A stretch of DNA of 64,000 bases from an uncultured candidatus Porisulfidus sp. (lineage in GTDB: Bacteria; Pseudomonadota; Gammaproteobacteria; Poriferisulfidales; Poriferisulfidaceae), in assembly GCA_965199755.1 (NCBI GenBank), contig CBDASZ010000001.1, positions 256,001 through 320,000 of the forward strand. Reading direction: 5' to 3'. Below the pieces are notes generated by a model. It did not search any database and was not told the DNA's origin. It saw only the letters and a program-made list of their open reading frames with translations. Shown here in pieces: positions 2,517 to 38,103 of this stretch. Within the stretch, counting starts at the first letter, position 1; each line of letters opens with the position of its first letter. A program made the translations under genes and the position numbers.

Positions 2517-2795
2517 AAGATCAGAGTTGTGCGGGACAGTGTATGCACGGGAGACAGAGTGGCAAAAAGCGGGTTATTGTGTCGCAGGCGTAGTGTTTCG
2601 CGCCAAAACAGGGGGTTGCGTGATTAGGGACACAATATTATAAGGCAGGGGCTTGTGGTGTGCATGCGGGTCAGCGGACAAAGTGATAGAGGATGACTGA
2701 TAAAATGGTAGTTGAAGCCACCGACCATATATAAAACTGGTTCTCAGATCATGCCCGAAAACAACGAAAATGACAATGATGGCATAATTCAGGGT

Positions 2796-4538
2796 ATGAA
2801 AGGTCTCATTCATCGCCTGCTTGGGGTGTCATTTGTGTTGGCGCTGGGGGCATTTGGCGTGGTAAGCGCGGACCCGGGCCTCAATATGCCCGAGGGCAGT
2901 TTCGTGGTAGCACTGCGCATAAACCCGCAGGATACAAAGGATTTAGAGCAATCTGATACGCAAGATTCAGGGGGTACACCAACTGACGAAGCCGAAACCG
3001 CGCCGCCGCAGGATCCGCCGGTCAATTCAGGGGATCAGGATGCGGAAAATCAGGAGGGATTGCGCGATTGGTTGGCGCGAGTGCTGTTTCCGCCGCAGTC
3101 TGCAGAGCTGGGGGACGGTGATGAGGCGTCAGAAGACAGTGCGCCGCAGACAGCTGAGGCTGAAGAGCCGGAGCCGTCGCCGCCCGCTGTGACAGAGGCG
3201 CCGCCTGAGGAGCCGGAACCACCCGAAGAGGCTGAAATTCCGCCAGAAGATCCTGCTGATGAAGAATCCGAAGATGTACTAACGCGGGCCGAGCGGGTCT
3301 TGGAAAATCTGGTCGATCTTTTGTTTGGCCTCCTGCCGGAAGAGACGGCCAGTTCACTAGACAGTCAGGATTCTGAGGAAAATCAGAGCGATTCCGAGCC
3401 TTCCGCAAGTGCGGAGGACCAGCAAAGCGCTGAATCCGCGCAAAGCGTACAGCGGGGAGCAGCTCAGCCTGCATCTTCCTTATCGCCTTCCACGCAAGGA
3501 CAGGGGACGGCCGGGACACCCACTAACACGCCAGCCGGCTCTGGGGACGGCGCTGAAGCACCATCAGGCAGTCCAGGCGAGTCGGGCGCTTCACAGGGGC
3601 AAGGCACAGGGCAGGGAGCAGTGTCCTCAGCGCCTTCTTCCTCCCCATCAGACAGCGCCTCCGGCTCCGAAGGGGGCAGTTCCGGGGAATCTTCAGGCGC
3701 ATCGGGATCAACCGAAAGTGCGTCAGGCGATCCGGGCGCTTCATCTGGACAGGGCGCAGCGGCTTCCGCATCCTCTACACCTTCGCAGGGTGCAGCAAAA
3801 GCCGGGGGGGCTGCGGCTGCTGAAGCGGGCAGCGCCTCCGCAGGCAGTGCGGTGGGCGACGTACAAGTCCCAGGGGTGCCAGGAGTACCCGGTTTACCGG
3901 GGCTGAGTCCCGGAGCCGGGCTAGGCCTTGACCTTGATCTGGAGCCAACGGTTTCAGGGGATGTGGGCACAGACGCATCGGGTGACACGGAAGGGACAGG
4001 GCAATCATCAGGCACTTCGGAATCTTCGGCAAGCGCATCAGGTCAGGAGGGCGCTTCGTCTGAACAGAACGCAGGTGCACCGGGCAATGCACCCGCACAG
4101 GGAGGCTTGGAATCAGGCAGTCCTGCAGGACGCGGGGTGACTCAGGCGGAGAAACAGGCCGAGATTGCTACCCGCGCCGGCAAGATCATGGAGAATCTTG
4201 ACGCTGTCTTGTTGCAGTCTCAGAAGGATCTGGAGGCCAGCACTGCGGAAGACGCGGAACTGGTGTCGATCGATGAAAGGTCGGGCTCCGGGGAGAGCGG
4301 CGATACGCAGGCGGAACAGGAGCAAACGGAAGACGGAGAAGAGGAGATGCAGCAGGGATCCAGAGACACAACGCCAGGCAATCAGGCCAGCAAAAGAGGT
4401 TCTGGTGGCGAGCTTGACCCGGAATCGGATATAGTGGTACGCCAAGTATGCGATCTTGCGGAACAAGAAGAGAATCCAGAGGTCAAACAGAAGCTGACAC
4501 AACGTTGTGCGGACATGAAAAAAGATGCGAAAAACTAA
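2796..4538 (+). CDS. Exported, acidic, largely disordered Ser/Gly/Ala/Pro/Glu-rich protein with a short helical C-terminal domain
   Basis: ORF 2712..4538. ATG 2796 gives the signal peptide MKGLIHRLLGVSFVLALGAFGVVSA; start uncertain. Low-complexity middle; C-terminus DIVVRQVCDLAEQEENPEVKQKLTQRC; overlaps the next gene. Confidence 0.75.
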   Translation: MKGLIHRLLGVSFVLALGAFGVVSADPGLNMPEGSFVVALRINPQDTKDLEQSDTQDSGGTPTDEAETAPPQDPPVNSGDQDAENQEGLRDWLARVLFPPQSAELGDGDEASEDSAPQTAEAEEPEPSPPAVTEAPPEEPEPPEEAEIPPEDPADEESEDVLTRAERVLENLVDLLFGLLPEETASSLDSQDSEENQSDSEPSASAEDQQSAESAQSVQRGAAQPASSLSPSTQGQGTAGTPTNTPAGSGDGAEAPSGSPGESGASQGQGTGQGAVSSAPSSSPSDSASGSEGGSSGESSGASGSTESASGDPGASSGQGAAASASSTPSQGAAKAGGAAAAEAGSASAGSAVGDVQVPGVPGVPGLPGLSPGAGLGLDLDLEPTVSGDVGTDASGDTEGTGQSSGTSESSASASGQEGASSEQNAGAPGNAPAQGGLESGSPAGRGVTQAEKQAEIATRAGKIMENLDAVLLQSQKDLEASTAEDAELVSIDERSGSGESGDTQAEQEQTEDGEEEMQQGSRDTTPGNQASKRGSGGELDPESDIVVRQVCDLAEQEENPEVKQKLTQRCADMKKDAKN

Positions 4539-5694
4539 CCAGCTGATCGGCTTGACGCTGCTGTGCGCACTGGCGACGGCCTGCAAAAGCGGGATCTATT
4601 CCGGTGGTTTCCTGTCGCTGGAGGATGATGCTCCCGCGGAGCCGATCCCGGTCGAGGCGTACATTGACGCGGGCATTGTCCGTTTCAAGGGGCCGATTGA
4701 CGAGGATGATCTAGCCGAAGGCAAAGTATTCAAGAAAGTCCGCGAAGCCGAGACGCATTATTTCCCGCAGCAGCTTCGCCAGGCGATGATTCGCAGCGGC
4801 GGCTGGCGACACGTCTGGGTGGTGCCCGAGACGTCGGTGGTGGATCTGAAGGTCGAGGGCTTGATCATCACTTCGGACGGTGAGGATCTGGATTTGCGGA
4901 TTATTGCCACTGATGCGACCGGCCGCAGATGGCTGGACAAAACCTACGACCATGAACTCACGGAGGAGAATTTCGCGCCAAGTCAGGGTGTGCAGATGCC
5001 GGACATGCTGTTTGACCAAATCGCCGCAGACCTGTTGAAGTTGCGCGACCGCCAAGGGGTGGAAGCGCTCAAGGAAATTCGCACGGTGGCGGAGTTGAAG
5101 TTCGCCAGAAATTTCGCACCGGAGGCGTTTGAGCGTTATGTCGGGCGCGATGGTGGCCGAGATTATCTGGTGTCGTTGCCGGCTCAGGACGATCTGAAGT
5201 ACCAGTTGGTGCTGCAGATTCGGGAATACGATGACCGGTTTATGGAGCAGTTGCAGGCCCACTCCATGAAGTTTTCCGACCGGATAGATTCCTCCTATCG
5301 CGATTGGCTCAAGCAAAGTTACTTTGAGCATCGCGCCCGTTCGGAAGAGGTCACCGACAGCGTTGTCCAAGGCGTGCTGAGTGTTTTGGCGCTGGCGGCC
5401 GGGGTGGCGATAGCGGCGGACGGCGGGCATCCTGACACACGCAATGCCGGAGTGTTGCTGGCGGCTGCCGGAGCGTATGGTGCTTACGAAGCGTATGGGA
5501 AATACGAAGGCACTGAAATTCACGACGCCGCATTGAAAGAACTCGGTCACTCACTCAATCTGGAGGTTGAGCCTCAGATCATTGAGATAGAAAGCGAAAC
5601 CTACACGCTTCGCGGTTCGGTCGAGGAGCAATATCAGCAGTGGCGCGACATCCTCAACGACATCTACGCATCGGAACGCGGCCTCCGCAATTGA
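4525..5694 (+). CDS. Putative outer-membrane lipoprotein with hydrophobic Gly/Ala hairpin
   Basis: Lipobox LATA-C20, +2 residue Lys; hydrophobic pair GVLSVLALAAGVAIAA / AGVLLAAAGAYGAY near the C-terminus. Confidence 0.8.
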   Translation: MRKTNQLIGLTLLCALATACKSGIYSGGFLSLEDDAPAEPIPVEAYIDAGIVRFKGPIDEDDLAEGKVFKKVREAETHYFPQQLRQAMIRSGGWRHVWVVPETSVVDLKVEGLIITSDGEDLDLRIIATDATGRRWLDKTYDHELTEENFAPSQGVQMPDMLFDQIAADLLKLRDRQGVEALKEIRTVAELKFARNFAPEAFERYVGRDGGRDYLVSLPAQDDLKYQLVLQIREYDDRFMEQLQAHSMKFSDRIDSSYRDWLKQSYFEHRARSEEVTDSVVQGVLSVLALAAGVAIAADGGHPDTRNAGVLLAAAGAYGAYEAYGKYEGTEIHDAALKELGHSLNLEVEPQIIEIESETYTLRGSVEEQYQQWRDILNDIYASERGLRN

Positions 5695-6425
5695 TCCGCA
5701 CCATCGGGGCGCTTGCGCTGGCGGTTTGGTCGGCGGTTGCGGTCGGCGCGGAATCCGCGGTGCCGCAAGCCGTGCTCGCGGCCATGGCTCGCGGTGACTG
5801 GGCGGAAGCGGCGCGACTGTTGCAGCCGCTTGACGGCGAGCGGGTGCGCGCCTACCGAAGTCAGGCTCTAGCGGAATTGCAGCATCTTGATGCCCGACCG
5901 CATATGCAGCAGGCCGAACAGGCGCGACAAAAACAAGACTGGAACGCTGCGGACGCGGCTTATGGCCGCGCGCTGGCGCGGGCTCCGTTGCTGGCGGCTG
6001 CGCAGAAGGGTCGCGCGCAAATCAAACCCTATATCGATGCGCATCAGCAACTGGCGGCACTGAAAGTGGATGAGGGTTTGTTTGATCCGGTGCTGCGGGC
6101 GCGGGCGCGGGACTGGCTGGCGGCGGTGCAGAAGCAAAAACTTTCAGATCCCAAAATCAATGCGGCGCTACGGGTGATCCCGCAAGTGGTCCAGCGTGCC
6201 GAGACACCGGTGTTTTTCACGCTGACTTCCGACGGCAAATCAGAGGTGGAGATCCATGGTGTGGGCAAGCTCGGACGTCTGCAGGAGCAGACCCTGAAAC
6301 TTGCTCCGGGGGATTATGTGGCGGTAGCGTTTCGTCCCGGCTATCGGGACACGCGCAAAGTCCTGCGGGTGCGACCGGATGAGACGTTGAGCGTGGACAT
6401 CCGCTGTACGGAGGAGATCCGGTGA
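5691..6425 (+). CDS. Exported TPR-like + PEGA-like domain protein
   Basis: TTG 5691 overlaps the upstream stop and gives the signal peptide MIRTIGALALAVWSAVAVGA; TPR-like helices (WNAADAAYGRALARAP); C-terminal beta domain LTSDGKSEVEI...LAPGDYVAVAFRPGYR. Confidence 0.75.
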   Translation: MIRTIGALALAVWSAVAVGAESAVPQAVLAAMARGDWAEAARLLQPLDGERVRAYRSQALAELQHLDARPHMQQAEQARQKQDWNAADAAYGRALARAPLLAAAQKGRAQIKPYIDAHQQLAALKVDEGLFDPVLRARARDWLAAVQKQKLSDPKINAALRVIPQVVQRAETPVFFTLTSDGKSEVEIHGVGKLGRLQEQTLKLAPGDYVAVAFRPGYRDTRKVLRVRPDETLSVDIRCTEEIR

Positions 6426-8236
6426 GCGTTCCGATTCGTGAGCAGCCGTATGTGCCTCCGGCTTCCGGTGGCGGGCCAAGGAAGCGGCGGCGCTGGTGGC
6501 CGGCTTTGCTGGTGTTGCTGGCGGCGCTGGTGGTCGGCGTGCTCGCCGCCACGATGGGGCGATTGCAGACTTTTGAGGTGACCCCGGCTGAGGCGACGGT
6601 GCAACTGGATCCGAAACCGTTGCTATCAGGAGATGACTGGGCCTTGCTGCACTGGCACTGGACCTATCAAGTTGAGGCGACGGCAGAAGGGTATCGTTCC
6701 TTGAAGCAGGAGTTGCTGGTGGATGACAGCAGTCCTTCAGTGTTGCGTCTGGAACTGGAGCCGCTGCTGGGTGCCTTGCGTGTGGTGACAGACCCGAAGG
6801 TGACAGGAGAAGTAAGTCTTGAGGGCAAACGGGTCGGACTGACAGGCAATGTGATTGAGGAGTTGGAGCCTGGAATTTACGACGTAGAGGTACGCGCGCG
6901 CGGTTATGAGCCGGGGCGCGCTGAGGCGAAGGTACATGGCTATGGCGCAGTCGATGAGATCACGCTGGAATTGGTCGCTTTGGCACTGGTTGGGACGCTG
7001 ACGCTCAGCAGCGATCCTGCGGGCGCGGATCTGCTCATCAACGGTGCGGCGCAAGGGCGCGCTCCACAGACGTTGACGGGGGAAGTGGGTGCGAAGTTAC
7101 AGGTGGTGGCGCTGTATCCGGGACATGACGTGGCGCGCGCGACGCTGACTGTGCGCGAAGGGGCGCAGAAACACACTTTGCGTCTGCCGGCGCGTGTCGG
7201 CACAGTGGAGTTGTTTCCGACGCCGACCAATGCGATGATCCGTATTGATGGTGAACTGGAACTGCGCCGAAAACTGGAACTGCCGCAGCGCGAGCACCAG
7301 ATTGAGGTCTCCGCTCCGGGGCATATCACCCGAACCTATCGTCTTACGCCTCATCCAGAGTCTGCGGCGCGGCTGAGCGTTCGTCTGTTGCCGGAGTCCG
7401 TTGCGGCTACGGGACGGCGGCAGAAATGGGAGCAGGAGCAGAAGTTGCAGTTTGTGTCGTATCGGCCTTACGAATCGTTTGCCATTGAGACGACGCGGCG
7501 CAAAATCCCGGTGCGCCTCACCCGTCCGTTCGCGATTCTCGATCGCGAAGTCAGCAACAAGTTGTATCGCAAGTTCCGCGACAGTCATGATTCCGGCAAG
7601 TTCAAGGGCAAGACCCTCGACAACGGGTCGCAACCGGCGGTGCGGATGTCGTGGAATGACGCCGCGCTGTTTGCGAACTGGGCGAGCGAGCAGGCCGGAG
7701 TGGCACCGTTTTATCGAATGAAGGATGGTCAGGTGAGGGGCTTTGATGCCAGTGCCATCGGTTACCGCTTGCCGACGGACGCCGAGTGGGTATGGTTGAC
7801 GCGGCGTGAGGGGCGTTTTGCATGGGGTGATGGCCGGCCGCCAAACCGTTTTGCCAATATGGCGGATCGCACGGCCTCAAAACTGTTGTCGCAGGTGAGC
7901 AAGGAATACACTGACGGATTTGAGGTCAGCGCTCCGGTCGGCAGTTTGCAGCCGGTAACACGAGGGAAGTTGTATGATTTGCCGGGGAATGTGGCGGAAT
8001 GGATACACGACGTGTACGGCAGTGATGTTAAATTGTTGATTGACACGGGGGGCCGCGGCGTTTCCGAGGAACGGGTGGATCCCTTGGGGGTGGCGAAGGG
8101 GCAGTTCCATGTGGTGCGCGGCTTCAGCTGGCGCACTTCAAGCCAGCGAGAACTCAGTCTGGCGTACCGGAATTATGGTGCGAAAGGCAAGCTCGATGTG
8201 GGTTTTCGGCTTGCCTACTATTTGGATCCAAAATGA
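6422..8236 (+). CDS. Membrane-anchored multi-PEGA + FGE/SUMF1-fold protein
   Basis: RKRRR followed by a TM helix; repeated PEGA-like units (LSSDPAGADLLING, EPGIYDVEVRARGY); SUMF1 motifs EVSN..Y, PAVRMSWNDA, YRLPTDAEW, LYDLPGNVAEW, VVRG.SW, VGFR. Confidence 0.88.
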   Translation: MSVPIREQPYVPPASGGGPRKRRRWWPALLVLLAALVVGVLAATMGRLQTFEVTPAEATVQLDPKPLLSGDDWALLHWHWTYQVEATAEGYRSLKQELLVDDSSPSVLRLELEPLLGALRVVTDPKVTGEVSLEGKRVGLTGNVIEELEPGIYDVEVRARGYEPGRAEAKVHGYGAVDEITLELVALALVGTLTLSSDPAGADLLINGAAQGRAPQTLTGEVGAKLQVVALYPGHDVARATLTVREGAQKHTLRLPARVGTVELFPTPTNAMIRIDGELELRRKLELPQREHQIEVSAPGHITRTYRLTPHPESAARLSVRLLPESVAATGRRQKWEQEQKLQFVSYRPYESFAIETTRRKIPVRLTRPFAILDREVSNKLYRKFRDSHDSGKFKGKTLDNGSQPAVRMSWNDAALFANWASEQAGVAPFYRMKDGQVRGFDASAIGYRLPTDAEWVWLTRREGRFAWGDGRPPNRFANMADRTASKLLSQVSKEYTDGFEVSAPVGSLQPVTRGKLYDLPGNVAEWIHDVYGSDVKLLIDTGGRGVSEERVDPLGVAKGQFHVVRGFSWRTSSQRELSLAYRNYGAKGKLDVGFRLAYYLDPK

Positions 8237-8457
8237 AGTACCTCTCTCTCGGCCTGTTGTTGTTCGCGGGGACGGCGATGGCGCAGGAGCCGCCTCCGGC
8301 AAAGGATTTAGACGCGCCGGATACGCCGTTGCTGGTCGATGTGCTCACCGGAGAGGAACTGGAGGAGATCTCGAAGAATCCCTCGCTGGTGCGCGCGCCG
8401 GCGCCGAAAGAGAAAATCACTGCGGATGAAGCAGTGGATATGCCGCGGGACATCTGA
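8233..8457 (+). CDS. Small exported acidic/Pro-rich protein (74 aa)
   Basis: Signal peptide MKYLSLGLLLFAGTAMA; ATGA and TGATG overlaps with both neighbours. Confidence 0.75.
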   Translation: MKYLSLGLLLFAGTAMAQEPPPAKDLDAPDTPLLVDVLTGEELEEISKNPSLVRAPAPKEKITADEAVDMPRDI

Positions 8458-9335
8458 TGCGTTTGCCGAACTGGCGTGACAACGAAGTGGTCTGGCAACT
8501 GCTGGCGCTGTTGCTGAGCATCGTGCTGGTGCATGCGGCGTATGAGCTGGTGGTGCGTCCCACCGCGGCGGTCGAATTGCAGCGTCAGGCGGTGCTGGCG
8601 CAGGCCGAAGCGCCGGCGGATCTGCTGGAGCCGCCTGTGTCAGTGAAGGCGGCGGTTGTGATCAAGGATTACGAACAGGAAGCCTGCTTCATCGCGCTGT
8701 TTTGGGCTTTCGCCATCATGTGGATGAAAGTAATGAAATTACAGTTCTCACGGCGTCTTCTGAGCTGGCCGGGACGCGGTGGAGAGGAGAGTTTTCTGGA
8801 AACCACCGACACGGATGTGATCCTGCCGCAACCGCAGGATCGAGCGCGCTTTGCGGAGATACGCGAACATGCCCGTCAGCATGGCTTCGGCGGCGCGGTG
8901 TTGTTTCAGGCGGTCGATGCCTGTCTGGACCGGTTCTTCACCACGCATTCCGTGTCGGATGCGACCGCGGCGATGAAGGCGCGCTGTGAAATGGAAGCGG
9001 AGCGTCAGGACACCGAACTGGCGCTGGTGCGTTATCTGACCTGGGCGATTCCGTCCTTGGGCTTCATTGGCACGGTTCGCGGCATCAGCGCGGCGCTGGG
9101 ACAGGCGGAAGAGGCGACGCGCGGCAATATTGGGCCGGTGACCGAAAGTCTGGGCGTGGCGTTCAATTCAACCTTTGTCGCCTTGCTGATCAGTCTGATC
9201 ATCATGCTGCTACTGCACAAGTTGCAGGAGGCCCAGGAATCCTTGGTGCTGGATTCGCAGGAACATTGTCAGCATCACCTGTTGCGCTACTTGCGCGGAC
9301 GGGTGCGCGCGGATGAACCCTCTGCTTCGGATTGA
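8457..9335 (+). CDS. MotA/TolQ/ExbB proton channel family protein
   Basis: WAIPSLGFIGTVRGI and LGVAFNSTFVALLISL match the TolQ/ExbB C-terminal TM pair; two additional N-terminal hydrophobic segments. Confidence 0.92.
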   Translation: MRLPNWRDNEVVWQLLALLLSIVLVHAAYELVVRPTAAVELQRQAVLAQAEAPADLLEPPVSVKAAVVIKDYEQEACFIALFWAFAIMWMKVMKLQFSRRLLSWPGRGGEESFLETTDTDVILPQPQDRARFAEIREHARQHGFGGAVLFQAVDACLDRFFTTHSVSDATAAMKARCEMEAERQDTELALVRYLTWAIPSLGFIGTVRGISAALGQAEEATRGNIGPVTESLGVAFNSTFVALLISLIIMLLLHKLQEAQESLVLDSQEHCQHHLLRYLRGRVRADEPSASD

Positions 9336-10275
9336 CGGCTATCTTCTGGCGCACGCCCAAGGCGAGCGTTGGGAGGCCGAATGGTGCGCCGCACATAGGC
9401 TCGAAGGCCGCAAGCGCTGGCAGTTTGGAAGCGGTAGCCTGTTGCCGGTCAAGCATGACGGCAACGAGAACAACAGTTATTTCGAGCGGCTGGAAGCCTA
9501 CGACATCGGTAGTGGTGGCTCCGATCTGGATATGGCGTATTGGCACCTGCAGCAGTTTTCTTCTGCCACGAACGATGCGTCTTTGGATTTACTGGTCAGC
9601 GCGACCTTAAATCAGGCGCGTCTGGAACGTCTGATGGGCGTGCTGTCCGCTTTGGGGCATCGCCCCCGGCGTGTGCTGCCGCATGCGTTGCTGGCCGCAT
9701 GGCAGGAAGCCCGCAGACGGAGTGCCGGGGCTGGCGGCACATATCAACTCATTGAGCTGGGGCGCAGCCACTGCAGCATCAGCACGGTTCGGGTGGATGC
9801 GAATGAGGTGGTGCTGTCCTCTCCGCATGCGCGGGAGTACGAGTTCGGGTTTCAGCAGATCTTCTCGCAATGGATGGAGCAGGCGGCGCAAGAGTTTGCC
9901 GCGCGTCAACGTTTCGACATTCACCGCAATCTGGTGGCGAACCGCGAACGCCTGTTCTTGCAGATGCGCCGGGCATCGTACGACGAGGACGCGCAATCCG
10001 AGTCACTGGAGCTGGACTCTCATGTAATTGCGTTAGATCTGGAGTCTTTCGCAATCAACTGGCCCGCGGATATGCTGGAAGCGGACGCGGACCACTGTTG
10101 GCTAGTGCGGCCCCTGACTCAGGAACTGGCCTTGTACCCGCCCGGCGTTAGTTATCAGGGGAAGGTGTCGTGTCTCTGCCCGGAAGGGTCGGTTGACGCG
10201 GTGCGTCAAGCGTTGGAGAGCGTACCTGAGGGCGATGGGCCTGAGTTGATTACGGAACTGAAACTGGGCTCGTGA
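9313..10275 (+). CDS. Cytoplasmic hypothetical protein, possible actin-like (GspL-cyto/PilM/FtsA-like) fold
   Basis: No signal peptide or TM. LERLMGVLSALGHRPRRVLPHALLAA followed by YQLIELGRSHCSISTV resembles the connect-1/phosphate-2 region of actin-fold proteins. Confidence 0.6.
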   Translation: MNPLLRIDGYLLAHAQGERWEAEWCAAHRLEGRKRWQFGSGSLLPVKHDGNENNSYFERLEAYDIGSGGSDLDMAYWHLQQFSSATNDASLDLLVSATLNQARLERLMGVLSALGHRPRRVLPHALLAAWQEARRRSAGAGGTYQLIELGRSHCSISTVRVDANEVVLSSPHAREYEFGFQQIFSQWMEQAAQEFAARQRFDIHRNLVANRERLFLQMRRASYDEDAQSESLELDSHVIALDLESFAINWPADMLEADADHCWLVRPLTQELALYPPGVSYQGKVSCLCPEGSVDAVRQALESVPEGDGPELITELKLGS

Positions 10276-11315
10276 GTGTTAGAAACCGCCAACGTTTTCT
10301 GAACCCGTTTGGGTTGGCGTTTCTGGATGTGATGTCCTGCGGCCTAGGGGCTGCAGTGCTGTTGTTTCTGATTATTGATCACAACCTGACCGAGCAGGCG
10401 GTGGCCTCGGAGACCGGGGAGGAGGACGTTCAGGTCATTGAGGAGGCCATTGAGCAGCAACAGAAACTTTCTATACAACACCGCTTGCAGACGAAGCAGT
10501 TGCAGAAGGAACTGGAGCAGTTGTCCGATGAGCGCGTGGAGACGTTGGTCGCGCTGGCTGAAGCACGCTCAGGTAGCGCCGAGGAAGTGGATACGGAAGA
10601 ACTTGAGCGTCAGTTGCGAGAGAAGCAAGAGCAACTGCAGCAAGCCAAGGAAAGTCAGCAGTTGCGTGATATTTCCGGGGAAGGGCAAAGGCAGTACGTG
10701 GCGGGGTTTCGGATAACCGGAAAGCGTGTTCTGTTTCTGCTGGATAGATCAGCCAGCATGCAGGATGAGAAGATTGCCACCATCATTTACAACCAGTTTC
10801 TGCCCAATGAAACGCAGCGCCAAAGCTCCAAATGGCTTTGGGCCCGTTCTATTCTGGAGTGGATGTTGGCGGCGCTGCCAAAAGACGCGCAATATCAGGT
10901 CTGGGGTTTCAGCAAGAAATATAGCCCGGTTATTTCGAGCCGTTCCTGGATGAATGCCAGCAATGAAGAGGATATGCGGAAAGTGATTGAGGCGGTGGGC
11001 CGATGGGTGCCCAAAGACGGCACACGTCTGGATAAGATGCTAAACAAGGTCAAGAATATGCGCCCGGCACCGGATACCGTCTACATCATTACAGACGGGC
11101 TGCCGACACAAGGATCCAGTTGGTTTAAAAAATCCAAGGTTAGCCCGGAGAAGCGAAAGGAATTCTTCCTTGAGGCTACAACAAAAATCATGTTTCCAAG
11201 GTTCAATGTGGTGTTGCTGCCGCTGGAAGGAGATCCTGAGGCGGCAGGGTTGTACTGGCGTTTTGCCATGCGAACAGGCGGGCAGTTTCTGGCTCCGTCG
11301 AAGGAATGGCCATGA
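10272..11315 (+). CDS. ExbD/MotB-like TM + coiled coil + VWA domain protein (copy 1)
   Basis: TM LAFLDVMSCGLGAAVLLFLII contains Asp; Q/E-rich coiled coil; MIDAS FLLDRSASM...DGTRL...IITDGLP. Confidence 0.88.
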   Translation: MSVRNRQRFLNPFGLAFLDVMSCGLGAAVLLFLIIDHNLTEQAVASETGEEDVQVIEEAIEQQQKLSIQHRLQTKQLQKELEQLSDERVETLVALAEARSGSAEEVDTEELERQLREKQEQLQQAKESQQLRDISGEGQRQYVAGFRITGKRVLFLLDRSASMQDEKIATIIYNQFLPNETQRQSSKWLWARSILEWMLAALPKDAQYQVWGFSKKYSPVISSRSWMNASNEEDMRKVIEAVGRWVPKDGTRLDKMLNKVKNMRPAPDTVYIITDGLPTQGSSWFKKSKVSPEKRKEFFLEATTKIMFPRFNVVLLPLEGDPEAAGLYWRFAMRTGGQFLAPSKEWP

Positions 11316-12274
11316 AGCGCGCGCGACGTAATCAGGACAACAATTTGTCCTTTCTGGATGTGATCAGTTGCAGCTTTGGCGCAATCATCTTGCTGATCCT
11401 GATCTCCAAACCTGCGGATGGGCCGCCGATTGAGGATTTGAGTCTTGAGATTGAAGCCCTGAAGGAAGCGCTCGTGAAAATCACCAGCATTCGGGAAGCA
11501 CTGGCGGAGGAAGAGGACAAAACCGAGAAAAAACTTCAGGCGCAACGGCAGCAACTGATCGAGGACAAGGAATCTCTGCAGGAAGCGAAGCGCGCGCAGG
11601 CAGGAGCCGAAGCGCAAACCTTGATTGCGGGCACTCTGAAGGCGGCATTGCAGCGCCTTAATGAAGAGATGAAGCGTCTGGATCTGAAGCCGTCGGAGCC
11701 GGATGTGATTGGTGGTATTCCGGCCGATAGTGAGTATCTGATTTTTATTATTGACACTTCAGGGAGCATGAAGCGCTACGTGTGGGAGCGCGCCAAGAAG
11801 CAAATGGTTGAGTTGCTGGATGCGTACCCGAAGGTTCGCGGCATTCAGATCATGAATGATATGGGGGAATATATGTTTAGCGGCTATCGCAGACGCTGGA
11901 TTCCTGACACGCCGTCACGTCGCGAGATCATATTGAAACGCTTCGACAGTTGGAGTTCCTACAGCAACTCCAGTCCAGTTGAAGGGATCTTGGAGGCGAT
12001 TGAGCGCTTTCGCATGAAGTCGGACAAGATCAGTCTATATGTTTTGGGTGATGAGTTCACTGGACAGTCGCTGCAAACAGTGATCGACACCGTTGAGAAA
12101 CTCAACTATCAGGATGGCGAGCGTCAGGTGCGCATTCACGCAATTGGATTCTTCCCACGTGCGGTTGTGGCGCAGTTCCCGGACTATGCGCATACGACGA
12201 CCCGTTACGCCGCATTGATGCGCGAACTGACCCGCCGCAATGGTGGATCATTTTTAGGGGTGCTGGTGAATTAA
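11312..12274 (+). CDS. ExbD/MotB-like TM + coiled coil + VWA domain protein (copy 2)
   Basis: TM LSFLDVISCSFGAIILLILI contains Asp; coiled coil; MIDAS FIIDTSGSM...NSSP...VLGDEF; ATGA overlap at 11312. Confidence 0.88.
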   Translation: MKRARRNQDNNLSFLDVISCSFGAIILLILISKPADGPPIEDLSLEIEALKEALVKITSIREALAEEEDKTEKKLQAQRQQLIEDKESLQEAKRAQAGAEAQTLIAGTLKAALQRLNEEMKRLDLKPSEPDVIGGIPADSEYLIFIIDTSGSMKRYVWERAKKQMVELLDAYPKVRGIQIMNDMGEYMFSGYRRRWIPDTPSRREIILKRFDSWSSYSNSSPVEGILEAIERFRMKSDKISLYVLGDEFTGQSLQTVIDTVEKLNYQDGERQVRIHAIGFFPRAVVAQFPDYAHTTTRYAALMRELTRRNGGSFLGVLVN

Positions 12275-12368
12275 ATGGGGCCTCAAGGCTATGTGTAGGG
12301 TGGAGGTCTTCGATAGAAGTTAGGTCTACTACGGCAGAAGTGGCTAGTCTTTATAAAATCGAATCTGG

Positions 12369-12669
12369 CTATTCGCACTCGTATTGAACTTCTGCCATAT
12401 CGATGACTTCTTGGCGGGAATAGCGACTTAATTCTGCGGCAGTTCTTAAATCCACTTGGCGTCTTCCAAACAAGGCCGATAATTCGATCTCCATGCCGGC
12501 CATACCAAAGAACCCATTCGGTCTGGAGGAATTCAGCCAGCAAGTCAATATCGCTGTTAGGACCAAAATTATCCCGCAATGCTGAACCAAAGATGGAAAG
12601 TTTTCGAATACCGCTATCGCGACAGAACGTACTCAATTCGGCTTCTCGGATCGATAAGTTGGGATTCAT
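12369..12669 (-). pseudogene. Frameshifted minimal nucleotidyltransferase (MNT/MntA-type antitoxin)
   Basis: One frame reads MNPNLSIREAELSTFCRDSGIRKLSIFGSALRDNFGPNSDIDLLAEF (GS...DxD). The C-terminal half GFFGMAGMEIELSALFGRRQVDLRT...RQEVIDMAEVQY is in another frame; the shift is near 12520. Confidence 0.85.
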
Positions 12670-12767
12670 GGCTGGAACCCACAAATTTGGGTTGATAGTG
12701 ATTCTAATTTCACCTTCCAATCAGGATGCAGAGAATTGGGCATCCTTCACTGACTAACAACCTACCG

Positions 12768-13622
12768 TTACTGTACTGGATCGACAGCCACCCAAGTTCC
12801 CAAATCACGCAACAATTCCGCTTCCTCTCCAAACCCTTCCAGCGCGGCCAAAGCCTGTTCTCCCAGCCCGGCAAGAAGCTTGCAGGTTTCCGCGTGTCCG
12901 AGTAAAGAAGGATAAGTCGGACGCTCTTCATCAGTGTCTTGCTCAATATCTTCAAGATCATCGCGCACCTGAAATGCCAGACTGACATTCTCCGCATACT
13001 GTTTGAGTGCTTCGCGACGCGGATCTTCTGGTGGGATCAATGTCGTGGGCATCATCACCGAAGCATAAATCAGACAGCCGGTTTTGAGTCGATAGATCTG
13101 CTCCAGCATTTCCACCGTGCACTCAGGCGCATCCAGCACACTCATATCCAGTTGTTGTCCGCCGATCATGCCGCAAGAGCCGCTGGCCTGACAGAACTGA
13201 TCCAGAATGCTGCGTGCCTCACTGGCGGACAAGTCGGGATCGGAGGCAACTTCATTGAAGGCGCAAATCAGCAAGGCATTGCCGGTCAGCAGGGCGGTGG
13301 CTTCACCGAATGCCTTGTGACAAGACGGTTGGCCGCGCCGGATATCGTCATCGTCCATGCATGGCAAATCATCATGGATCAGAGAGTACGCATGCACCAG
13401 TTCCGTCGCGCAGGCGATGCGGTCCAGACGCGATGCGTCGATGCCGGTCGCTTGGCCTGAGGAGTACACCCAGCAGGCGCGCACACATTTTCCTGGACTG
13501 GCCGCACCATGGCGCATGGCGGCATGCAAGCGTTGTGGTGCTACCTCTGCAGGAGGCAGGACTTCTTCAATGCGAGCAATAACCCGCTGCCGCAGCGGGG
13601 CCAGTTTAGCGATCAGGTCCAT
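12768..13622 (-). CDS. ispA: Farnesyl diphosphate synthase / geranyltranstransferase
   Basis: HAYSLIHDDLPCMDDDDIRRGQP, GGQQLD, KTG, FQVRDD motifs. Confidence 0.93.
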   Translation of the reverse strand: MDLIAKLAPLRQRVIARIEEVLPPAEVAPQRLHAAMRHGAASPGKCVRACWVYSSGQATGIDASRLDRIACATELVHAYSLIHDDLPCMDDDDIRRGQPSCHKAFGEATALLTGNALLICAFNEVASDPDLSASEARSILDQFCQASGSCGMIGGQQLDMSVLDAPECTVEMLEQIYRLKTGCLIYASVMMPTTLIPPEDPRREALKQYAENVSLAFQVRDDLEDIEQDTDEERPTYPSLLGHAETCKLLAGLGEQALAALEGFGEEAELLRDLGTWVAVDPVQ

Positions 13623-13674
13623 ACGAGGAGGCCGCTAGCAGCAGGCAGGTAGTGGCGTTGATTCCAGACCCGGA

Positions 13675-13998
13675 TTACGCCGCGGAGCCGCTACCGCTTT
13701 TCGCTTTAGCGGGTGCTTTCCTGCGTGTGGTTGTTTTCCGTCGTCCGGTGGCGCGTTTTCTAGGAGGCTTGATGGTGTCCAAGCGTTTCTGTATTTCCTG
13801 CACGCGATCGCACATCTGCACCAGCAATTCGGATTGCGCGGAGAATTCTTCGCGGCTCACGATGTTGAGGCGCTTCAGTACTGTGTCAATGCCGCTTTCC
13901 GCAGTCTTTTTAATTTCCTTGCGGGAAGTCTTCAGTATATCTTCGACATCGACTTTGCGCACTAGGTCATTTATTTTGTCCCAGTCTATATTGATCAT
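13675..13998 (-). CDS. UbiK/BMFP-like coiled-coil protein with Lys/Arg-rich tail
   Basis: LKRLNIVSREEFSAQSELL resembles the BMFP/UbiK motif LDLVxREEFDxQ; directly downstream of ubiE; start chosen at MINIDW. Confidence 0.7.
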   Translation of the reverse strand: MINIDWDKINDLVRKVDVEDILKTSRKEIKKTAESGIDTVLKRLNIVSREEFSAQSELLVQMCDRVQEIQKRLDTIKPPRKRATGRRKTTTRRKAPAKAKSGSGSAA

Positions 13999-14050
13999 TT
14001 TGAGCGAGTCCTCTGTTTCACATAAATGAGACAGTGTTGTTATTCCCAAA

Positions 14051-21672: not shown

Positions 21673-22029
21673 TGCCGCACAGTCTAGCAAAATTGGGGGT
21701 CGGAGCACCGGTTCAACTTCAGCCCGTTTGCGGAAATCCCATCCCTGTCACGCTTAATCGGGTGTGACATCAAGGCAATACATCGGCTACACGTGTAAGT
21801 TCATTTCCGTATAATCGCCCGCCCAAGCAAAGTCATGTCCGCAGTTGCGCGCGAGAGTTAGGTGGCGCTTGGGATGCTGTCTCCATTTAATTTAATGAGG
21901 GGTGTGGGGGTGGTGCCTGTGTGGCGCTGCGCGGATCAATCTGAATCTGCAGTGGTAGGGCACGATTGACAAGACCCCCTCCATAGCTCCCGGCATTCCG
22001 GGTGTGCAACAAGATCTTGGTATTTGGCG

Positions 22030-22038
22030 TGTTAGAAT
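22030..22038 (+). promoter_or_regulatory. Putative extended -10 promoter (TGn-TAGAAT) of the sox operon
   Basis: TGTTAGAAT about 30 bp upstream of the likely soxX start. Confidence 0.4.
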
Positions 22039-22069
22039 TTTCGCCATGGATTCAGTCACCGCACCTGTG

Positions 22070-22423
22070 ATGCGTCGTACACTATTCACCCTGACCTTGA
22101 TGGGAGCCATTGTGTCTTCTCTGGCACAGGCCGATGACGCAGGCAGCAGCGCGGCGGTTGAGGTGGGACGTGAGATCGCCTTCGATGTCAAGAAGGGCAA
22201 CTGCCTGTCCTGTCATGTAATCCCCGGAGGAGAGTCACCGGGCAGCATCTCCGTGGCGCTGGTGGCTATGAAAACTCGGTTCCCGGACAAACAGGTGTTG
22301 CGTGCCAATGTCTGGGATCAGACTCAATTTCGCCCACATGCCATGATGCCGCCGTTCGGCAAGCACGGCATCTTGACGGAAGAAGATATTGACAATATTG
22401 TAGAGTTCCTCTACACCCTGTAA
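22070..22423 (+). CDS. soxX: Sulfur oxidation c-type cytochrome SoxX
   Basis: Signal peptide, KGNCLSCH heme motif, MMPPFG; first gene of the sox cluster. Confidence 0.93.
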   Translation: MRRTLFTLTLMGAIVSSLAQADDAGSSAAVEVGREIAFDVKKGNCLSCHVIPGGESPGSISVALVAMKTRFPDKQVLRANVWDQTQFRPHAMMPPFGKHGILTEEDIDNIVEFLYTL

Positions 22424-22433
22424 CATTGGAGCC

Positions 22434-22874
22434 ATGCTTATGAATCTGAATCGCAGAACTTTTATCGCAGCGGGATTGGGCGTGCTGTGCGCGCCGGTGC
22501 TGGTGCGAGCGTGGCCGCAAAAGGCGTTTGAGGCTGAAAAGGCTGACGAGGTGCTGGCGGAACTGGTAAAAAACACACCGGAACACAGCGACGCGATCAC
22601 CATCACCGCACCCGACATTGCGGAGAATGGCGCAGTGGTCCCGATATCGGTTTCAACCAGTCATGAAGAGGTCACCCGGATCAGCATTCTGGTGGAGAGC
22701 AATCCGCTGCCGTTGACCTCAAGTTACGAGTTGAGCGCAAATGCCGTGCCTTACGTTTCTACCCGCGTGAAAATGCTCAAGACATCAAACGTGGTCGCGC
22801 TCGTGGATGCGGGCGGCAAGACCTATACCGAAAGCCGTGAAATCAAGGTCACGATAGGTGGCTGCGGCGGCTAA
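22434..22874 (+). CDS. soxY: Sulfur carrier SoxY
   Basis: Tat signal NRRTFI; APDIAENGAVVP; C-terminal VTIGGCGG. Confidence 0.97.
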   Translation: MLMNLNRRTFIAAGLGVLCAPVLVRAWPQKAFEAEKADEVLAELVKNTPEHSDAITITAPDIAENGAVVPISVSTSHEEVTRISILVESNPLPLTSSYELSANAVPYVSTRVKMLKTSNVVALVDAGGKTYTESREIKVTIGGCGG

Positions 22875-22903
22875 ACAACAACCAGTCACAAGGAGTCGAT
22901 ACG

Positions 22904-23212
22904 ATGGCAAAAACAATGCGCGTGCGGGCCAAGGAAAAGGACGGCATCGTGACCGTCAAGGCCCTCATAACCCACCCGATGGAAACCGGCCTGCGCAAGG
23001 ACAGCGACGGCGAGATCATTCCGGCGCACTTCATCAAGGAAGTCACCGCTACCGTCGGTGACAAGACGGTGTTCACGGCGAACTGGGGCACTGGGGTGTC
23101 GAAGAACCCGTATTTGTCGTTCAAATATCGAGGTTCAAGCGGTGACGTACTGACCCTGAGTTGGACCGACAACAAGGATGAATCTGACTCAATTGAGGCG
23201 ACCGTCAAGTGA
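22904..23212 (+). CDS. soxZ: SoxZ
   Basis: HPMETGLRKD, IPAHFI, SKNPY, WTDN. Confidence 0.97.
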   Translation: MAKTMRVRAKEKDGIVTVKALITHPMETGLRKDSDGEIIPAHFIKEVTATVGDKTVFTANWGTGVSKNPYLSFKYRGSSGDVLTLSWTDNKDESDSIEATVK

Positions 23213-24057
23213 CAACACGCCTCGCCATAGCCGGTGTGCTGGCGGCGGCCTTGACAGCCGCGGCGACGCTCGGCGTGAGCGCGGACGCCATTGATCCGCA
23301 AAAGGATCTGGAGAAGATACACGGCTTCTTCAAGGAAAAATTCCCGTCCCTTCCTTGGGAGGAGTTTGCAAATGGCTCCTACGCGCTGGATCCGTCCTGG
23401 CGTGCCAACTGGGAATTAATCGAAGAGTTCCCGCCGTATGAAGTCGCCATTTCAGCCGGTGAGGAAATGTGGAACATCCCGTTCGCCAACGGCAAGACTT
23501 ACGCCGACTGTTTCGGCGAGCCGGGCGTGCAGCATCACTATCCGCGCTGGGACAGCGAACAGGGCCAAGTGGTCACATTGGCGCTGGCCATCAACCAGTG
23601 CCGCGAGGCGAACGGCGAGGATCTTTTGCAATACAAGAACGGCGCGATCGTAGACATTCTGGCCTATATGGCCTACGAGTCCCGTGGTCAGATCATCAAT
23701 GTGGTGGTGCCGAAAGACGCCCCTGGCGCACTGGAAGCCTACCAAAAGGGTCGCGAGTTCTACTTCACGCGCCGCGGCCAGTTGAATTTCGCTTGTGCCC
23801 ACTGCCATTTCAGCATGGCTGGGCGCAAGCTGCGCACGGAATCTCTTTCTCCGGCCCTCGGACAAGCGACGGGCTGGCCGGTGTACCGCTCCAAATGGGG
23901 TGCCATCGGTACTCTGCATCGCCGCTACACTGGCTGCAACAAACAGGTGCGCGCCAAACCATTTGAGGCGCAGGGCGAAGAGTACCGCAATCTTGAGTAC
24001 TTCCACACGCACATGAGCAATGGGCTGCCTCTGAATGGCCCGGCCGCGAGGAAGTAG
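23209..24057 (+). CDS. soxA: SoxA cytochrome c (monoheme type)
   Basis: RRGQLNFACAHCH, WPVYRSKW, GCNKQVRA (Cys ligand); first heme site degenerate (YADCF). Confidence 0.96.
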   Translation: MTTRLAIAGVLAAALTAAATLGVSADAIDPQKDLEKIHGFFKEKFPSLPWEEFANGSYALDPSWRANWELIEEFPPYEVAISAGEEMWNIPFANGKTYADCFGEPGVQHHYPRWDSEQGQVVTLALAINQCREANGEDLLQYKNGAIVDILAYMAYESRGQIINVVVPKDAPGALEAYQKGREFYFTRRGQLNFACAHCHFSMAGRKLRTESLSPALGQATGWPVYRSKWGAIGTLHRRYTGCNKQVRAKPFEAQGEEYRNLEYFHTHMSNGLPLNGPAARK

Positions 24058-24061
24058 TCAA

Positions 24062-24382
24062 ATGAGACTACGCTATCTGCACTCCGCTCTGATCGCTCTG
24101 GCGTTGTGCGGTATCGTGCCGGGTGCGCTTCAGGCGGCGGATCAGGAAAGTTTTGATGATGCGCTTGCGGTGGCGCTGGCTGCGCAGGAGAAAGCCGCGT
24201 CCGTCAGTGGTGAGTGGCGCGATGTTGGCCAGTTCCTCAAGGATGCTCAGGAGAAAGCGGCCGCGGGTGATTTTGCTGGTGCCATCGCCCTAGCGAAGAA
24301 GGCCGAGCATCAATCCTTGCGAGGCTATGAGCAGATGACCTCGCAAGCCGGAAAGGTCGGTCTGGACCCCTACCTGCAATAA
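24062..24382 (+). CDS. soxK: SoxXA-binding protein (SoxK-like)
   Basis: Signal peptide, Ala-rich helical protein with GEWRD motif, located between soxA and soxB. Confidence 0.8.
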   Translation: MRLRYLHSALIALALCGIVPGALQAADQESFDDALAVALAAQEKAASVSGEWRDVGQFLKDAQEKAAAGDFAGAIALAKKAEHQSLRGYEQMTSQAGKVGLDPYLQ

Positions 24383-24396
24383 GCCACAGGCCGAAC

Positions 24397-32280: not shown

Positions 32281-32705
32281 GGCGTGAACTCCGGCTGTTT
32301 TATGTCTTCGGCGCGCAATCGTTCATGGTGCCGCAAGGCATCGTAGGCTTTCGCCGGGCGGTCGGCATGGCATTCAAAGCAATCAATGCGGACACCCGCA
32401 TAGATATGGCAGGCGGAGCAGAAATGCTGCTCGCTGCTGGCGCGGGGATAGCTGCCGGCCTCATCGGCGCGGACATGGCATTCCAGACAATTCTTCAGCG
32501 AATGCTTCGTTGTGCGGATGCCGCGATGCACGGTTTCGTCACGTTGATGCAGGATGAACTCCCAATGGCGTTCCCGCATTACGTCAGTTGGCTCCACGCA
32601 TTGCTCTCCCAAAGGTTTCGGGAGGACAGGACGGGGCGCGTCCGCTTCCAGAGGAGTGCTCACCATCAGTATGAGCATTGGCAGCACCAGCAACGAATGG
32701 CGCAT
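32277..32705 (-). CDS. dsrJ: DsrJ triheme cytochrome c
   Basis: Signal peptide from ATG 32705; CLECH, CSACH, CFECH; MRERH motif. Confidence 0.93.
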   Translation of the reverse strand: MRHSLLVLPMLILMVSTPLEADAPRPVLPKPLGEQCVEPTDVMRERHWEFILHQRDETVHRGIRTTKHSLKNCLECHVRADEAGSYPRASSEQHFCSACHIYAGVRIDCFECHADRPAKAYDALRHHERLRAEDIKQPEFTP

Positions 32706-32725
32706 GGGGTTTTGACCCGTGCGGA

Positions 32726-34681: not shown

Positions 34682-34701
34682 GGTATTCTCCTAATGATGG
34701 G

Positions 34702-36970: not shown

Positions 36971-37015
36971 AACAGTCCCCGGTGATGCGGCGCATCGCGC
37001 CTGAACCGGGTCTCC

Positions 37016-37348: not shown

Positions 37349-37379
37349 AGTCTTATCCTCCCATCTTCTTGGGGGTTAT

Positions 37380-37682: not shown

Positions 37683-37688
37683 GATGCT

Positions 37689-38102: not shown

Positions 38103-38103
38103 G

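Follow-up and report, generated by a model that had tools for sequence, protein, structure and literature searches.

A VWA-headed pair of paralogues beside a TolQ-like gene: candidate axle subunits of a 5:2 motor in marine Gammaproteobacteria

What might two adjacent, related membrane proteins with von Willebrand factor A (VWA) domains do when they are encoded close to a subunit of the MotA/TolQ/ExbB family? This question is raised by a locus in a 64,000-nucleotide stretch of DNA (the window hereafter) from an uncultured Candidatus Porisulfidus sp. (GenBank assembly GCA_965199755.1, contig CBDASZ010000001.1, positions 256,001 to 320,000 of the forward strand). The two genes, which we call VWA1 (10272..11315, + strand, 347 residues) and VWA2 (11306..12274, + strand, 322 residues), code for B-subunit-like paralogues, and slightly upstream lies g6 (8457..9335, + strand, 292 residues), a MotA/TolQ/ExbB-family A-subunit presumed to form a pentameric stator ring. 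A preliminary description, drawn from the letters of the sequence, had proposed a heterodimeric motor core that grips a partner through metal ion-dependent adhesion sites (MIDAS). Our analysis leads to a closely similar answer: we consider it fairly probable that VWA1 and VWA2 are the heterodimeric B-type (axle) subunits of a "5:2" motor of the MotAB/ExbBD/TolQR kind, with g6 as its ring.

The first line of evidence comes from the membrane helix. Each protein has a single hydrophobic segment (residues 17–35 in VWA1 and 15–33 in VWA2), and the transmembrane (TM) sequences, LAFLDVMSCGLGA in VWA1 and LSFLDVISCSFGA in VWA2, have the motif FLD-x3-C-G-x-G-A in common. Locus counts here and below refer to the best 80 of 580 confirmed genome matches. 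In these 80 genome loci a regular expression for the TM motif matched 79 of 79 VWA1 and 75 of 76 VWA2 orthologues, the sole VWA2 lacking it being a truncated open reading frame (ORF) at locus L063. Over both paralogues (28 sequences), F17, L18, D19, C23, G26 and L30 are invariant, and the stretch that follows the Asp, S/C/T-C-G-x-G-A, is made up mostly of small residues. The codons from D19 (10326–10328) to C23 (10338–10340) of VWA1 occupy 10326..10340 on the + strand and specify a putative proton-carrying Asp and a conserved Cys one helical turn further out; those from D18 (11357–11359) to C22 (11369–11371) of VWA2 occupy 11357..11371 on the same strand, with D18 and C22 invariant in 18 orthologues. 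In an alignment of the N-termini, D19 coincides with the essential TM Asp of E. coli TolR, ExbD and MotB; around it, FLDVM is similar to FIDVM of ExbD and LLDVL of TolR.

Conservation of the Asp extends well beyond these loci. Among representatives of the best 150 of the 2997 clusters retrieved with the VWA1 profile, it is present in all 123 that could be evaluated, the others being gene calls that start at a Met just past the Asp (7) and fragments or proteins with a different N-terminus (20). The full motif, two hydrophobic residues followed by D-x3-C-x2-G, was recovered in 118 of the 150. The preliminary description had likened this Asp to the proton-accepting residue of ExbD, TolR and MotB, and both its complete conservation and its place in the column of the TolR/ExbD/MotB Asp agree with this; likewise, the basic N-terminal tails and the shared TM motif, which it had read in the two window proteins, recur throughout their orthologues. 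As to its suggestion that the shared TM Cys could be functional, the Cys at Asp+4 is highly conserved (118 of the 123 evaluable representatives), but it is not indispensable, since five representatives have S, V, N or A in its place with the helix and the Asp intact. Lying on the same helical face as the Asp and one turn away from it, the Cys might affect packing or the passage of ions.

The charges that flank the helix speak to its orientation. The N-terminal tail is net positive in 80 of 80 VWA1 and 74 of 76 VWA2 sequences, the window copies included, and the 20 residues past the TM segment of VWA1 contain on average 4.7 D/E against 1.2 K/R. By the positive-inside rule, this bias implies an N-in orientation with the VWA domains in the periplasm. 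Thus, as far as the charge pattern tells, the VWA heads are likely periplasmic, in the same orientation as in MotB, ExbD and TolR, which agrees with the placement of these domains outside the cytoplasm on which the preliminary description hinged.

The second line of evidence concerns the heads. VWA1 passes the cut-off of the Pfam family VWA_2 narrowly (E = 3.4e-6; 28.1 bits against 27), and in its AlphaFold2 model residues 150–347 mostly have a predicted local distance difference test (pLDDT) score above 90; for the whole chain the mean is 75.3 and the predicted template modeling (pTM) score 0.59, with the TM segment and parts of the stalk at low confidence. A Foldseek search with this model returned at least 290 PDB chains at E ≤ 0.001. 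Among the 50 matches listed, the titles that we recognized are ITIH1, the CaV alpha2delta subunit, BatB (3ibs) and integrin I domains, all of which we take to contain VWA domains. For VWA2, a Pfam VWA match at E ≤ 0.01 was found in 6 of 18 orthologues. The metal-coordinating set of a MIDAS consists of D-x-S-x-S, followed at a distance by T and then D. In VWA1 the motif D158-R-S160-A-S162 (10743..10757, + strand) is complemented by T251 and D275, and over 24 sequences D158, S160, S162 and D275 are invariant, with T251 kept in at least 90%. In VWA2 the motif is D150-T-S152-G-S154, and D150, S152, S154, S223 and D249 are invariant over 18 sequences. The program hhalign pairs the five VWA1 positions D158/S160/S162/T251/D275 with D150/S152/S154/S223/D249 of VWA2, in that order. 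Further, the pattern D-x-[ST]-x-S was found in 143 of the 150 cluster representatives. The VWA domain with MIDAS-type residues that the preliminary description saw in each protein was thus recovered for VWA1 by Pfam, the structural model and its fold matches, and for VWA2 by way of hhalign.

The third line of evidence is the predicted complex of the two proteins. In the AlphaFold2 model of VWA1, helices span residues 25–48, 51–101 and 108–142. When full-length VWA1 and VWA2 were modeled together, each with its own alignment, heptad-like contacts at every third or fourth residue ran over residues 49–125 of VWA1 and 45–125 of VWA2. The coiled-coil stalk noted in the preliminary description is thus seen both in the helices of VWA1 and in the contact pattern of the complex; a parallel coiled coil of about 11–16 nm is predicted (75–107 helical residues at 0.15 nm each). 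At its outer end the model brings the heads together, with residues 315–346 of VWA1 against 276–320 of VWA2. These contact segments, the C-termini of the two proteins, are their most conserved, paralogue-specific parts. For this one modeled pair, the median interface score derived from predicted aligned errors (ipSAE) was 0.81 (0.82, 0.80 and 0.81 in the three runs) against 0.01 for the best control; at least 54% of the contacts agreed between runs, and the pLDDT of the partners was at least 74. In a calibration set, 116 of 157 solved complexes came up to the mark of 0.81, as did 2 of 215 mismatched pairs; these counts are only a rough guide for VWA1/VWA2, whose alignments were custom-made. 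None of the MIDAS residues is listed at the interface, as would suit ligand sites that are free, although residues left unlisted are merely uncertain. The spacing between the Asp and the MIDAS is 139 residues in VWA1 and 132 in VWA2 in the clade of the window, as against 154 and 142 in most other loci; the stalks thus shorten together, which fits paired stalks. On the strength of the model, the VWA1/VWA2 axle is most likely a heterodimer.

The proposed ring subunit, the protein encoded by g6, matches Pfam MotA_ExbB (PF01618) with E = 6.4e-12 and 45.8 bits against a cut-off of 22.9, and it is no equivalog of PomA (18.6 bits against 341) or TolQ (18.4 against 221) in NCBIfam. In an alignment with E. 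coli TolQ, ExbB and MotA, its P199, G202, V207, G209, A235 and T239 are invariant and T206 is kept in at least 90%. T206 and T239 align with what we take to be the two pore threonines of TolQ and ExbB, and the pore motifs around them, G-T-V-x-G and A-F-N-S-T, are both present in 75 of 75 orthologues. The protein also has an additional N-terminal hydrophobic helix. No Pfam match to the ExbD, TolR, MotB or OmpA families was found among the nine operon proteins of the window or the 13 of locus L019.

The gene order is as conserved as the residues. VWA2 lies directly downstream of VWA1 in 78 of the 80 loci, the contigs of the other two (L001 and L046) ending there, and by tblastn g6 is co-linear and on the same strand in 75 loci, the misses of this synteny survey stemming largely from short contigs. 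The motor core of the preliminary description fares differently in its two halves: the B-subunit role is borne out by the Asp alignment, the constant presence of g6 and the absence of ExbD, TolR and MotB from the operon, while the heterodimer draws its support from the predicted complex, at an ipSAE of 0.81.

The two reading frames are tightly packed. VWA1 starts with a GTG codon and shares 4 nt with the stop of the upstream gene g7; for VWA2, an alternative start, the ATG at 11312 in an ATGA overlap with the VWA1 stop, is a better fit to the N-termini of its orthologues. VWA1 consists of a basic tail (residues 1–14), a putative trans-pore helix (about 15–35), a stalk (about 36–142) and the VWA domain (150–347), closing with a conserved ...DWP; VWA2 has a putative trans-pore helix at about 13–33, a stalk and a VWA domain. 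In BLASTP the two share 25% identity along their N-terminal 158 residues (E = 5e-7), and hhalign matched their profiles (24 and 18 orthologues) with a probability of 99.5% and E = 4.4e-22 over 249 columns that span the VWA domain. Judged by these alignments, they are old, distant paralogues of one architecture. As a side observation, the GC content is 0.53 at 10001–14000, which holds the VWA genes and the next 2 kb, versus about 0.60 over the upstream operon genes; this dip may come from the stalks, which are rich in Glu, Lys and Gln, or point to another history.

The family is large. Of 4817 candidates in a search with VWA1, 952 proteins reached E ≤ 0.001, and matches were found in 580 species-level genomes; conservation on this scale rules out chance. 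Run against 1.84 billion representatives of clusters formed at 50% identity, the VWA1 profile matched 2997 clusters at E ≤ 0.001, of which 1183 remained at E ≤ 1e-10 and 423 at E ≤ 1e-30. The closest loci come from metagenome-assembled genomes of Candidatus Porisulfidus, with 61–63% identity in VWA1, and the family is common in marine Gammaproteobacteria, including the Halieaceae, Arenicella and sulfur-oxidizing symbionts of sponges.

We also looked for true fusions of VWA1 and VWA2 as Rosetta-stone evidence, running a TM-motif profile against longer proteins (scoring was confined to the 8000 candidates with the most shared words, and the best 120 were listed). Ten database proteins (P0121–P0130, 412–855 residues) gave doubled TM-profile scores and had the look of fusions with two trans-pore helices. 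In the seven of these that we inspected, an out-of-frame, R/P/G/A-rich stretch stands in for the end of VWA1 and leads into the VWA2 frame, so we rejected the set as frameshifted gene calls. The topology of a genuine fusion would be awkward as well, and such gene calls could mislead surveys of domain architecture.

The motor reading is not new: the preliminary description reached it independently, and it is the same as a hypothesis put forward in Mol Biol Evol 2025, msaf138 (PMC12204202). In its account of the "TPH-vWA" proteins, that paper proposes, from in silico work, that pairs of them are the dimeric partner of TolQ-like pentamers. They are described there as co-occurring tightly with tolQ homologues without tolR or exbD alongside, as having a TolR/ExbD-like trans-pore helix with a conserved Asp, as occurring "predominantly in heterologous pairs", and as found mainly in Proteobacteria and Verrucomicrobia; its AF3 (AlphaFold 3) models place the helix pair within the pentamer, where threonines encircle the Asp. 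Of another vWA family, the paper says that no deletion phenotypes have been reported. VWA1 and VWA2 match this account of TPH-vWA in their single N-terminal membrane helix joined to a VWA domain, in the co-linear g6 (75 of 80 loci) with no tolR or exbD in the window or the L019 operon, in the TM Asp (123 of 123) and the A-subunit Thr motifs (75 of 75), and in forming a heterologous pair that is adjacent in 78 of 80 loci. The match is one of the features stated in that paper, as distinct from a comparison with its Idiomarina loihiensis seed sequence. Its main text contains none of the terms cysteine, MIDAS, heterodimer, coiled, Hsp70, sulfatase and PEGA, and our literature search, with subscription journals outside it, found no other description of the VWA pair. 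As far as searched, the Cys at Asp+4, the predicted contact between the VWA heads and the conserved operon of 9–13 genes are additions to what is in print.

Several points weigh against the motor reading. On the side of the heads, VWA2 on its own stays under the Pfam VWA cut-off (21.6 bits against 27) and its profile matches no PDB sequence at E ≤ 0.01; we accept it as a probable VWA domain through its hhalign match to VWA1 alone, and it has a Ser at the position of the MIDAS Thr (T251 of VWA1). On the side of the helix, a profile of the TM region (48 columns, 28 N-termini) retrieved no ExbD, TolR or MotB chain from the PDB at E ≤ 10, its only matches there being two chance ones to a mitochondrial complex I subunit; at the sequence level, the likeness to ExbD/TolR is a short motif and no statistically significant match. 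That the helices insert into the g6 ring is suggested by homology and by the published AF3 model of proteins from another species. In the calibration of the complex test, close cousins of the true partner, i.e., paralogues, also pass, and the covariation in stalk length is one or two evolutionary events. Finally, the full-text literature search (again with subscription journals outside it) found no experiment on any member of the family.

Three other accounts of the pair have to be set against this background. MotB, ExbD and TolR are homodimers, and on this precedent VWA1 and VWA2 could each pair with itself, so that two alternative motors (A5:VWA1x2 and A5:VWA2x2) would act on different targets in the periplasm. 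Their TM motifs are near-identical, so that either could self-pair in the pore, and the fact that close relatives of a true partner pass the complex test works in the same direction. Nevertheless, such homodimers seem to us unlikely: in all 78 loci with downstream sequence the two genes stand side by side in one order, with coupled translation; the paralogues have stayed distinct, with about 25% identity and different conserved C-termini; and the confident head-to-head contact of the model is made by segments that are conserved in a paralogue-specific manner. The joint change in length of both stalks between clades adds a weak argument of the same kind.

A further account would place the VWA proteins outside the pore, as membrane-anchored proteins of the BatA/BatB type or as TonB/TolA-like transducers on the outer side of the ring, with the true B-subunit encoded elsewhere. 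BatB (3ibs) and an aerotolerance VWA protein of B. fragilis (4jdu) are indeed among the structural matches, our analysis covers 64 kb of the genome, so that a tolR or exbD could lie elsewhere, and a separate TonB/TolA-like vWA family is described in PMC12204202. We regard this account as improbable in view of the invariant Asp at the TolR/ExbD/MotB position. Moreover, the VWA helices have no His or SHLS-type motif of the form quoted in PMC12204202, no MoxR or DUF58 neighbor is encoded in the window or among the L019 operon proteins, and no tolR or exbD lies next to the tolQ-like gene of L019, as that paper's description says of its own family. The remaining account casts the system mainly as a sensor, in which the heads would report the state of an envelope ligand and the ring, by proton flux or a conformational change, would relay the signal to a cytoplasmic Hsp70-like protein (in some cases with an FHA domain). 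The setting offers it some footing: nearly every locus has, between its A and B genes, a gene for a protein with the fold of the Hsp70 nucleotide-binding domain (NBD), and 2 of 23 of its homologues have an FHA domain. TagQ is a lipoprotein, and the TagQ/TagR route ends at an FHA protein. According to PMC13713981, the periplasmic TagR of P. aeruginosa, of the FGE-sulfatase family, acts with TagQ in a signaling route. Against a sensor stand the lack of an FHA-like C-terminal domain in the window version of the Hsp70-like protein (g7) and the absence of g7 from loci L028 and L049, the lack of a kinase or phosphatase among the operon proteins of the window and L019, and the strictly conserved proton-relay residues, which argue for an energized device. 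We give this account little credence.

For the motor reading, homology suggests the following course of events. Five g6 subunits would surround two B-helices, with the short basic tail of each B-subunit in the cytoplasm and one helix of each in the pore of the g6 ring. Asp19 of VWA1 and Asp18 of VWA2 would gain and lose protons opposite the conserved threonine ring, and relative rotation would follow. The coiled coil and the packed heads, as modeled, would hold two MIDAS-type sites out in the periplasm, where an acidic side chain on some envelope partner would probably be the ligand of the heads. Proton flow might then turn or pull the bound partner, or the heads might anchor the axle while the ring turns. 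The likeliest partners of the heads would be the products of the same operon, g1, g2, g3, g4 and g5, and g7 would be a candidate cytoplasmic partner of the ring. In our opinion, the cellular purpose is most likely tethering or remodeling of the envelope. On a wider and more doubtful view, which we put forward as a tentative possibility, the whole operon of 9–13 genes would be an undescribed trans-envelope machine, with a TolQ-like ring, a heterodimeric VWA-headed axle whose MIDAS clutches the acidic g1/g5 or g4, a pseudo-ATPase of the Hsp70-NBD type bound to the ring, and a Cys that tunes or gates the ions.

These partners are encoded in a run of nine + strand ORFs (2712–12274) in which successive starts and stops overlap or abut. 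The first, g1 (2712..4538, + strand, 608 residues), has an N-terminal hydrophobic anchor (36–54) and an extremely acidic low-complexity body rich in S/G/A/E/D, a composition unusual for a bacterial envelope protein. It belongs to no Pfam or NCBIfam family and was found by tblastn only in the six closest loci. It is a probable periplasmic protein and, by its composition, a candidate acidic ligand. From a resemblance of the C-termini seen by eye only, g1 may be the counterpart of the acidic lipoprotein u2 of L019; a tblastn search of the window with u2 gave no match at E ≤ 0.01. The next gene, g2 (4525..5694, + strand, 389 residues), codes for a putative lipoprotein with a signal sequence ending in ...ATAC and a C-terminal Gly/Ala-rich hydrophobic segment (280–298); its nearest ESM Atlas clusters are annotated as "Lipoprotein family protein" or hypothetical, and it has no Pfam family. 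The secreted protein g3 (5640..6425, + strand, 261 residues) has a signal-like N-terminus and no Pfam family, and its orthologues in the Halieaceae are about 500 residues long. In g4 (6422..8236, + strand, 604 residues), a single TM anchor (28–46) is followed by PEGA repeats and a C-terminal domain of the FGE-sulfatase fold (Pfam FGE-sulfatase 3.6e-24, PEGA 3.6e-15). Despite a likeness to GldK/PorK and TagR, it does not belong to these families; for the NCBIfam GldK model (TIGR03525) it scores 49.8 bits, far under the cut-off of 350. The small secreted protein g5 (8233..8457, + strand, 74 residues) has a signal peptide and an acidic mature part, and tblastn found an ORF at its position in 3 loci with the window query and in 32 with that of L019. 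Over the 80 loci, the co-linear, same-strand tblastn counts are 74 for g4, 66 for g2 and 63 for g3.

The gene between ring and axle, g7 (9313..10275, + strand, 320 residues), codes for a cytoplasmic protein without a TM segment whose fold is that of the nucleotide-binding domain of Hsp70 (actin-like ATPase). Its AlphaFold2 model (pLDDT 82.8, pTM 0.84) drew at least 500 matches from the PDB at E ≤ 0.001. Those listed, 50 in number, all belong to the Hsp70 family (DnaK, mortalin, BiP and Hsc70), most being ATPase domains; a weak NCBIfam match to GspL is superseded by this fold match. The positions of what are presumably the two phosphate-binding loops of Hsp70 look degenerate in the g7 alignment, and by its sequence g7 may not hydrolyze ATP. 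Except in L028 and L049, every locus with both g6 and VWA1 has a divergent g7 homologue in the 1.3-kb space that separates the two. Most homologues are about 430 residues long; those from outside the clade of the window exceed g7 by some 110 residues and have an extra C-terminal domain (e.g., L060:1968–3347 and L075:3183–4529). This domain is FHA, as Pfam finds in the 2 of 23 homologues mentioned above, or FHA-like, and the window version of g7 is without it.

The operon varies in size from nine genes in the window to as many as 13 in the Halieaceae. In the latter and in others, the cluster is longer, with a tetratricopeptide repeat (TPR) protein and an acidic lipoprotein upstream and, in the Halieaceae cluster, two lipoproteins and then an M48 peptidase downstream of VWA2; each of these five extra genes was found in 44–64 loci. 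The five extra proteins of L019 (TPR, lipoproteins, M48) had no tblastn match in the window at E ≤ 0.01. Past VWA2 the coding strand flips, and a small nucleotidyltransferase ORF (12289–12720, − strand; NTP_transf_2 1.8e-5, Polbeta 3.4e-4) converges on the end of VWA2. The surroundings of the operon are housekeeping genes (ubiB-like, ispA-like, ubiE, xerC and dapF). With this setting, synteny across families and only marginal PADLOC matches (ZorA 0.0051, LmuB 0.0045), we do not favor a role in anti-phage defense. Membership in a type IX secretion system (T9SS) or gliding apparatus was likewise set aside, the only hint being the sub-threshold likeness of the FGE-sulfatase domain to GldK/GldJ.

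Elsewhere in the window, sox genes and dsr-type genes lie at 22004–26139 and 31555–40920. The sox-type products comprise a cytochrome c, SoxY, SoxZ, a SoxA-type protein and a SoxB-like protein with a 5'-nucleotidase domain, and those of dsr type in the same stretches comprise DsrC, DsrH, Fe-S and nitrate-reductase-gamma-like subunits and a sulfite-reductase-type protein. Taken with the Candidatus Porisulfidus origin of the nearest loci, these genes mark the DNA as that of a sulfur-oxidizing gammaproteobacterium, probably from a lineage associated with sponges. Between a sulfite-reductase-type gene and a second DsrC-like gene lies an island of low GC content at 40001–44000 (0.475–0.507 versus about 0.59 elsewhere), whose ORFs at 41242–42357 and 42661–43800, both on the + strand, are paralogous and have a domain like HSDR_N of type I restriction systems; the island may be a mobile or defense insert. 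Further along, at 50132–50817 (− strand), an ORF with an Xre/MbcA/ParS antitoxin C-terminal domain lies beside an ORF of 97 residues without a family, and the two are possibly a toxin–antitoxin pair.

The uses understood so far for a MotA/ExbB-type 5:2 motor are few: flagella, Ton, Tol, gliding/T9SS and Zorya. An axle ending in two VWA/MIDAS heads would couple proton flow to a metal-dependent grip on a protein, a new way of transmitting force across the periplasm. If the wider view of the whole operon as one machine is true, Mot, Ton/Tol, Gld/Agl and Zor would be joined by a fifth functional class of 5:2 motors, in which a catch-type grip that depends on metal would be seen for the first time. 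The conserved operon provides the published hypothesis with a short list of candidate partners and makes it directly testable in cultured carriers such as Kineobactrum, Parahaliea, Pseudohaliea and Thalassomonas.

How, then, does this locus compare with the known systems? With ExbB-ExbD and TolQ-TolR it shares the TolQ/ExbB pore motifs of g6, including both Thr, and B-subunits with a basic N-terminal tail, one N-in helix and an Asp at the same place near its cytoplasmic end. In contrast to ExbD and TolR, VWA1 and VWA2 lack the ExbD/TolR periplasmic domain (no Pfam PF02472 match at E ≤ 0.01), and their helices have small residues (S-C-G-x-G-A) after the Asp where ExbD and TolR have aliphatic ones. 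The locus departs from Ton/Tol also in its long coiled-coil stalk with a VWA head, its two paralogous B genes, the extra N-terminal helix of g6 and the lack of a TonB/TolA-like gene in the operon. The flagellar stators MotA-MotB and PomA-PomB display the same A/B logic and the same Asp. MotA has four hydrophobic helices, as g6 probably does. Unlike MotB and PomB, the VWA pair lacks a C-terminal peptidoglycan-binding domain of the OmpA type (Pfam matches neither OmpA nor MotB_plug), no flagellar genes lie nearby, and the first pore Thr site of g6 is of the TolQ rather than the MotA type.

Gliding motors offer further parallels. GldM reaches the GldK/N ring, and GldL-GldM resembles the present system as a 5:2-type motor with a long periplasmic extension of the B-subunit and a gene beside one for an FGE-sulfatase-fold protein (g4 here). 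Yet g4 is TM-anchored and has PEGA repeats, whereas GldK is a lipoprotein, VWA heads take the place of the GldM domains, and no other T9SS family was detected in Pfam and NCBIfam scans of the operon proteins. For Zorya ZorAB, the sole PADLOC match was ZorA to g6 (E = 0.0051, 13.8 bits), with no ZorB match for VWA1 or VWA2. BatA and BatB are likewise membrane-anchored bacterial VWA proteins, and 3ibs and 4jdu are among the fold matches of VWA1, but VWA1 and VWA2 differ from them in the Asp-bearing, ExbD-like helix, the coiled-coil stalk and the lack of MoxR or DUF58 neighbors. The arrangement of one A gene with two different B-type genes recurs in AglR-AglQ-AglS, in which AglQ and AglS, set apart here by description, are short, TolR-like and without VWA heads. 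The same arrangement, again with short, TolR-like B-subunits in place of VWA-headed ones, is found in the clusters of the PVC group (Planctomycetes, Verrucomicrobia and Chlamydiae) with one tolQ-like and two tolR-like genes that PMC12204202 describes in its treatment of these clusters.

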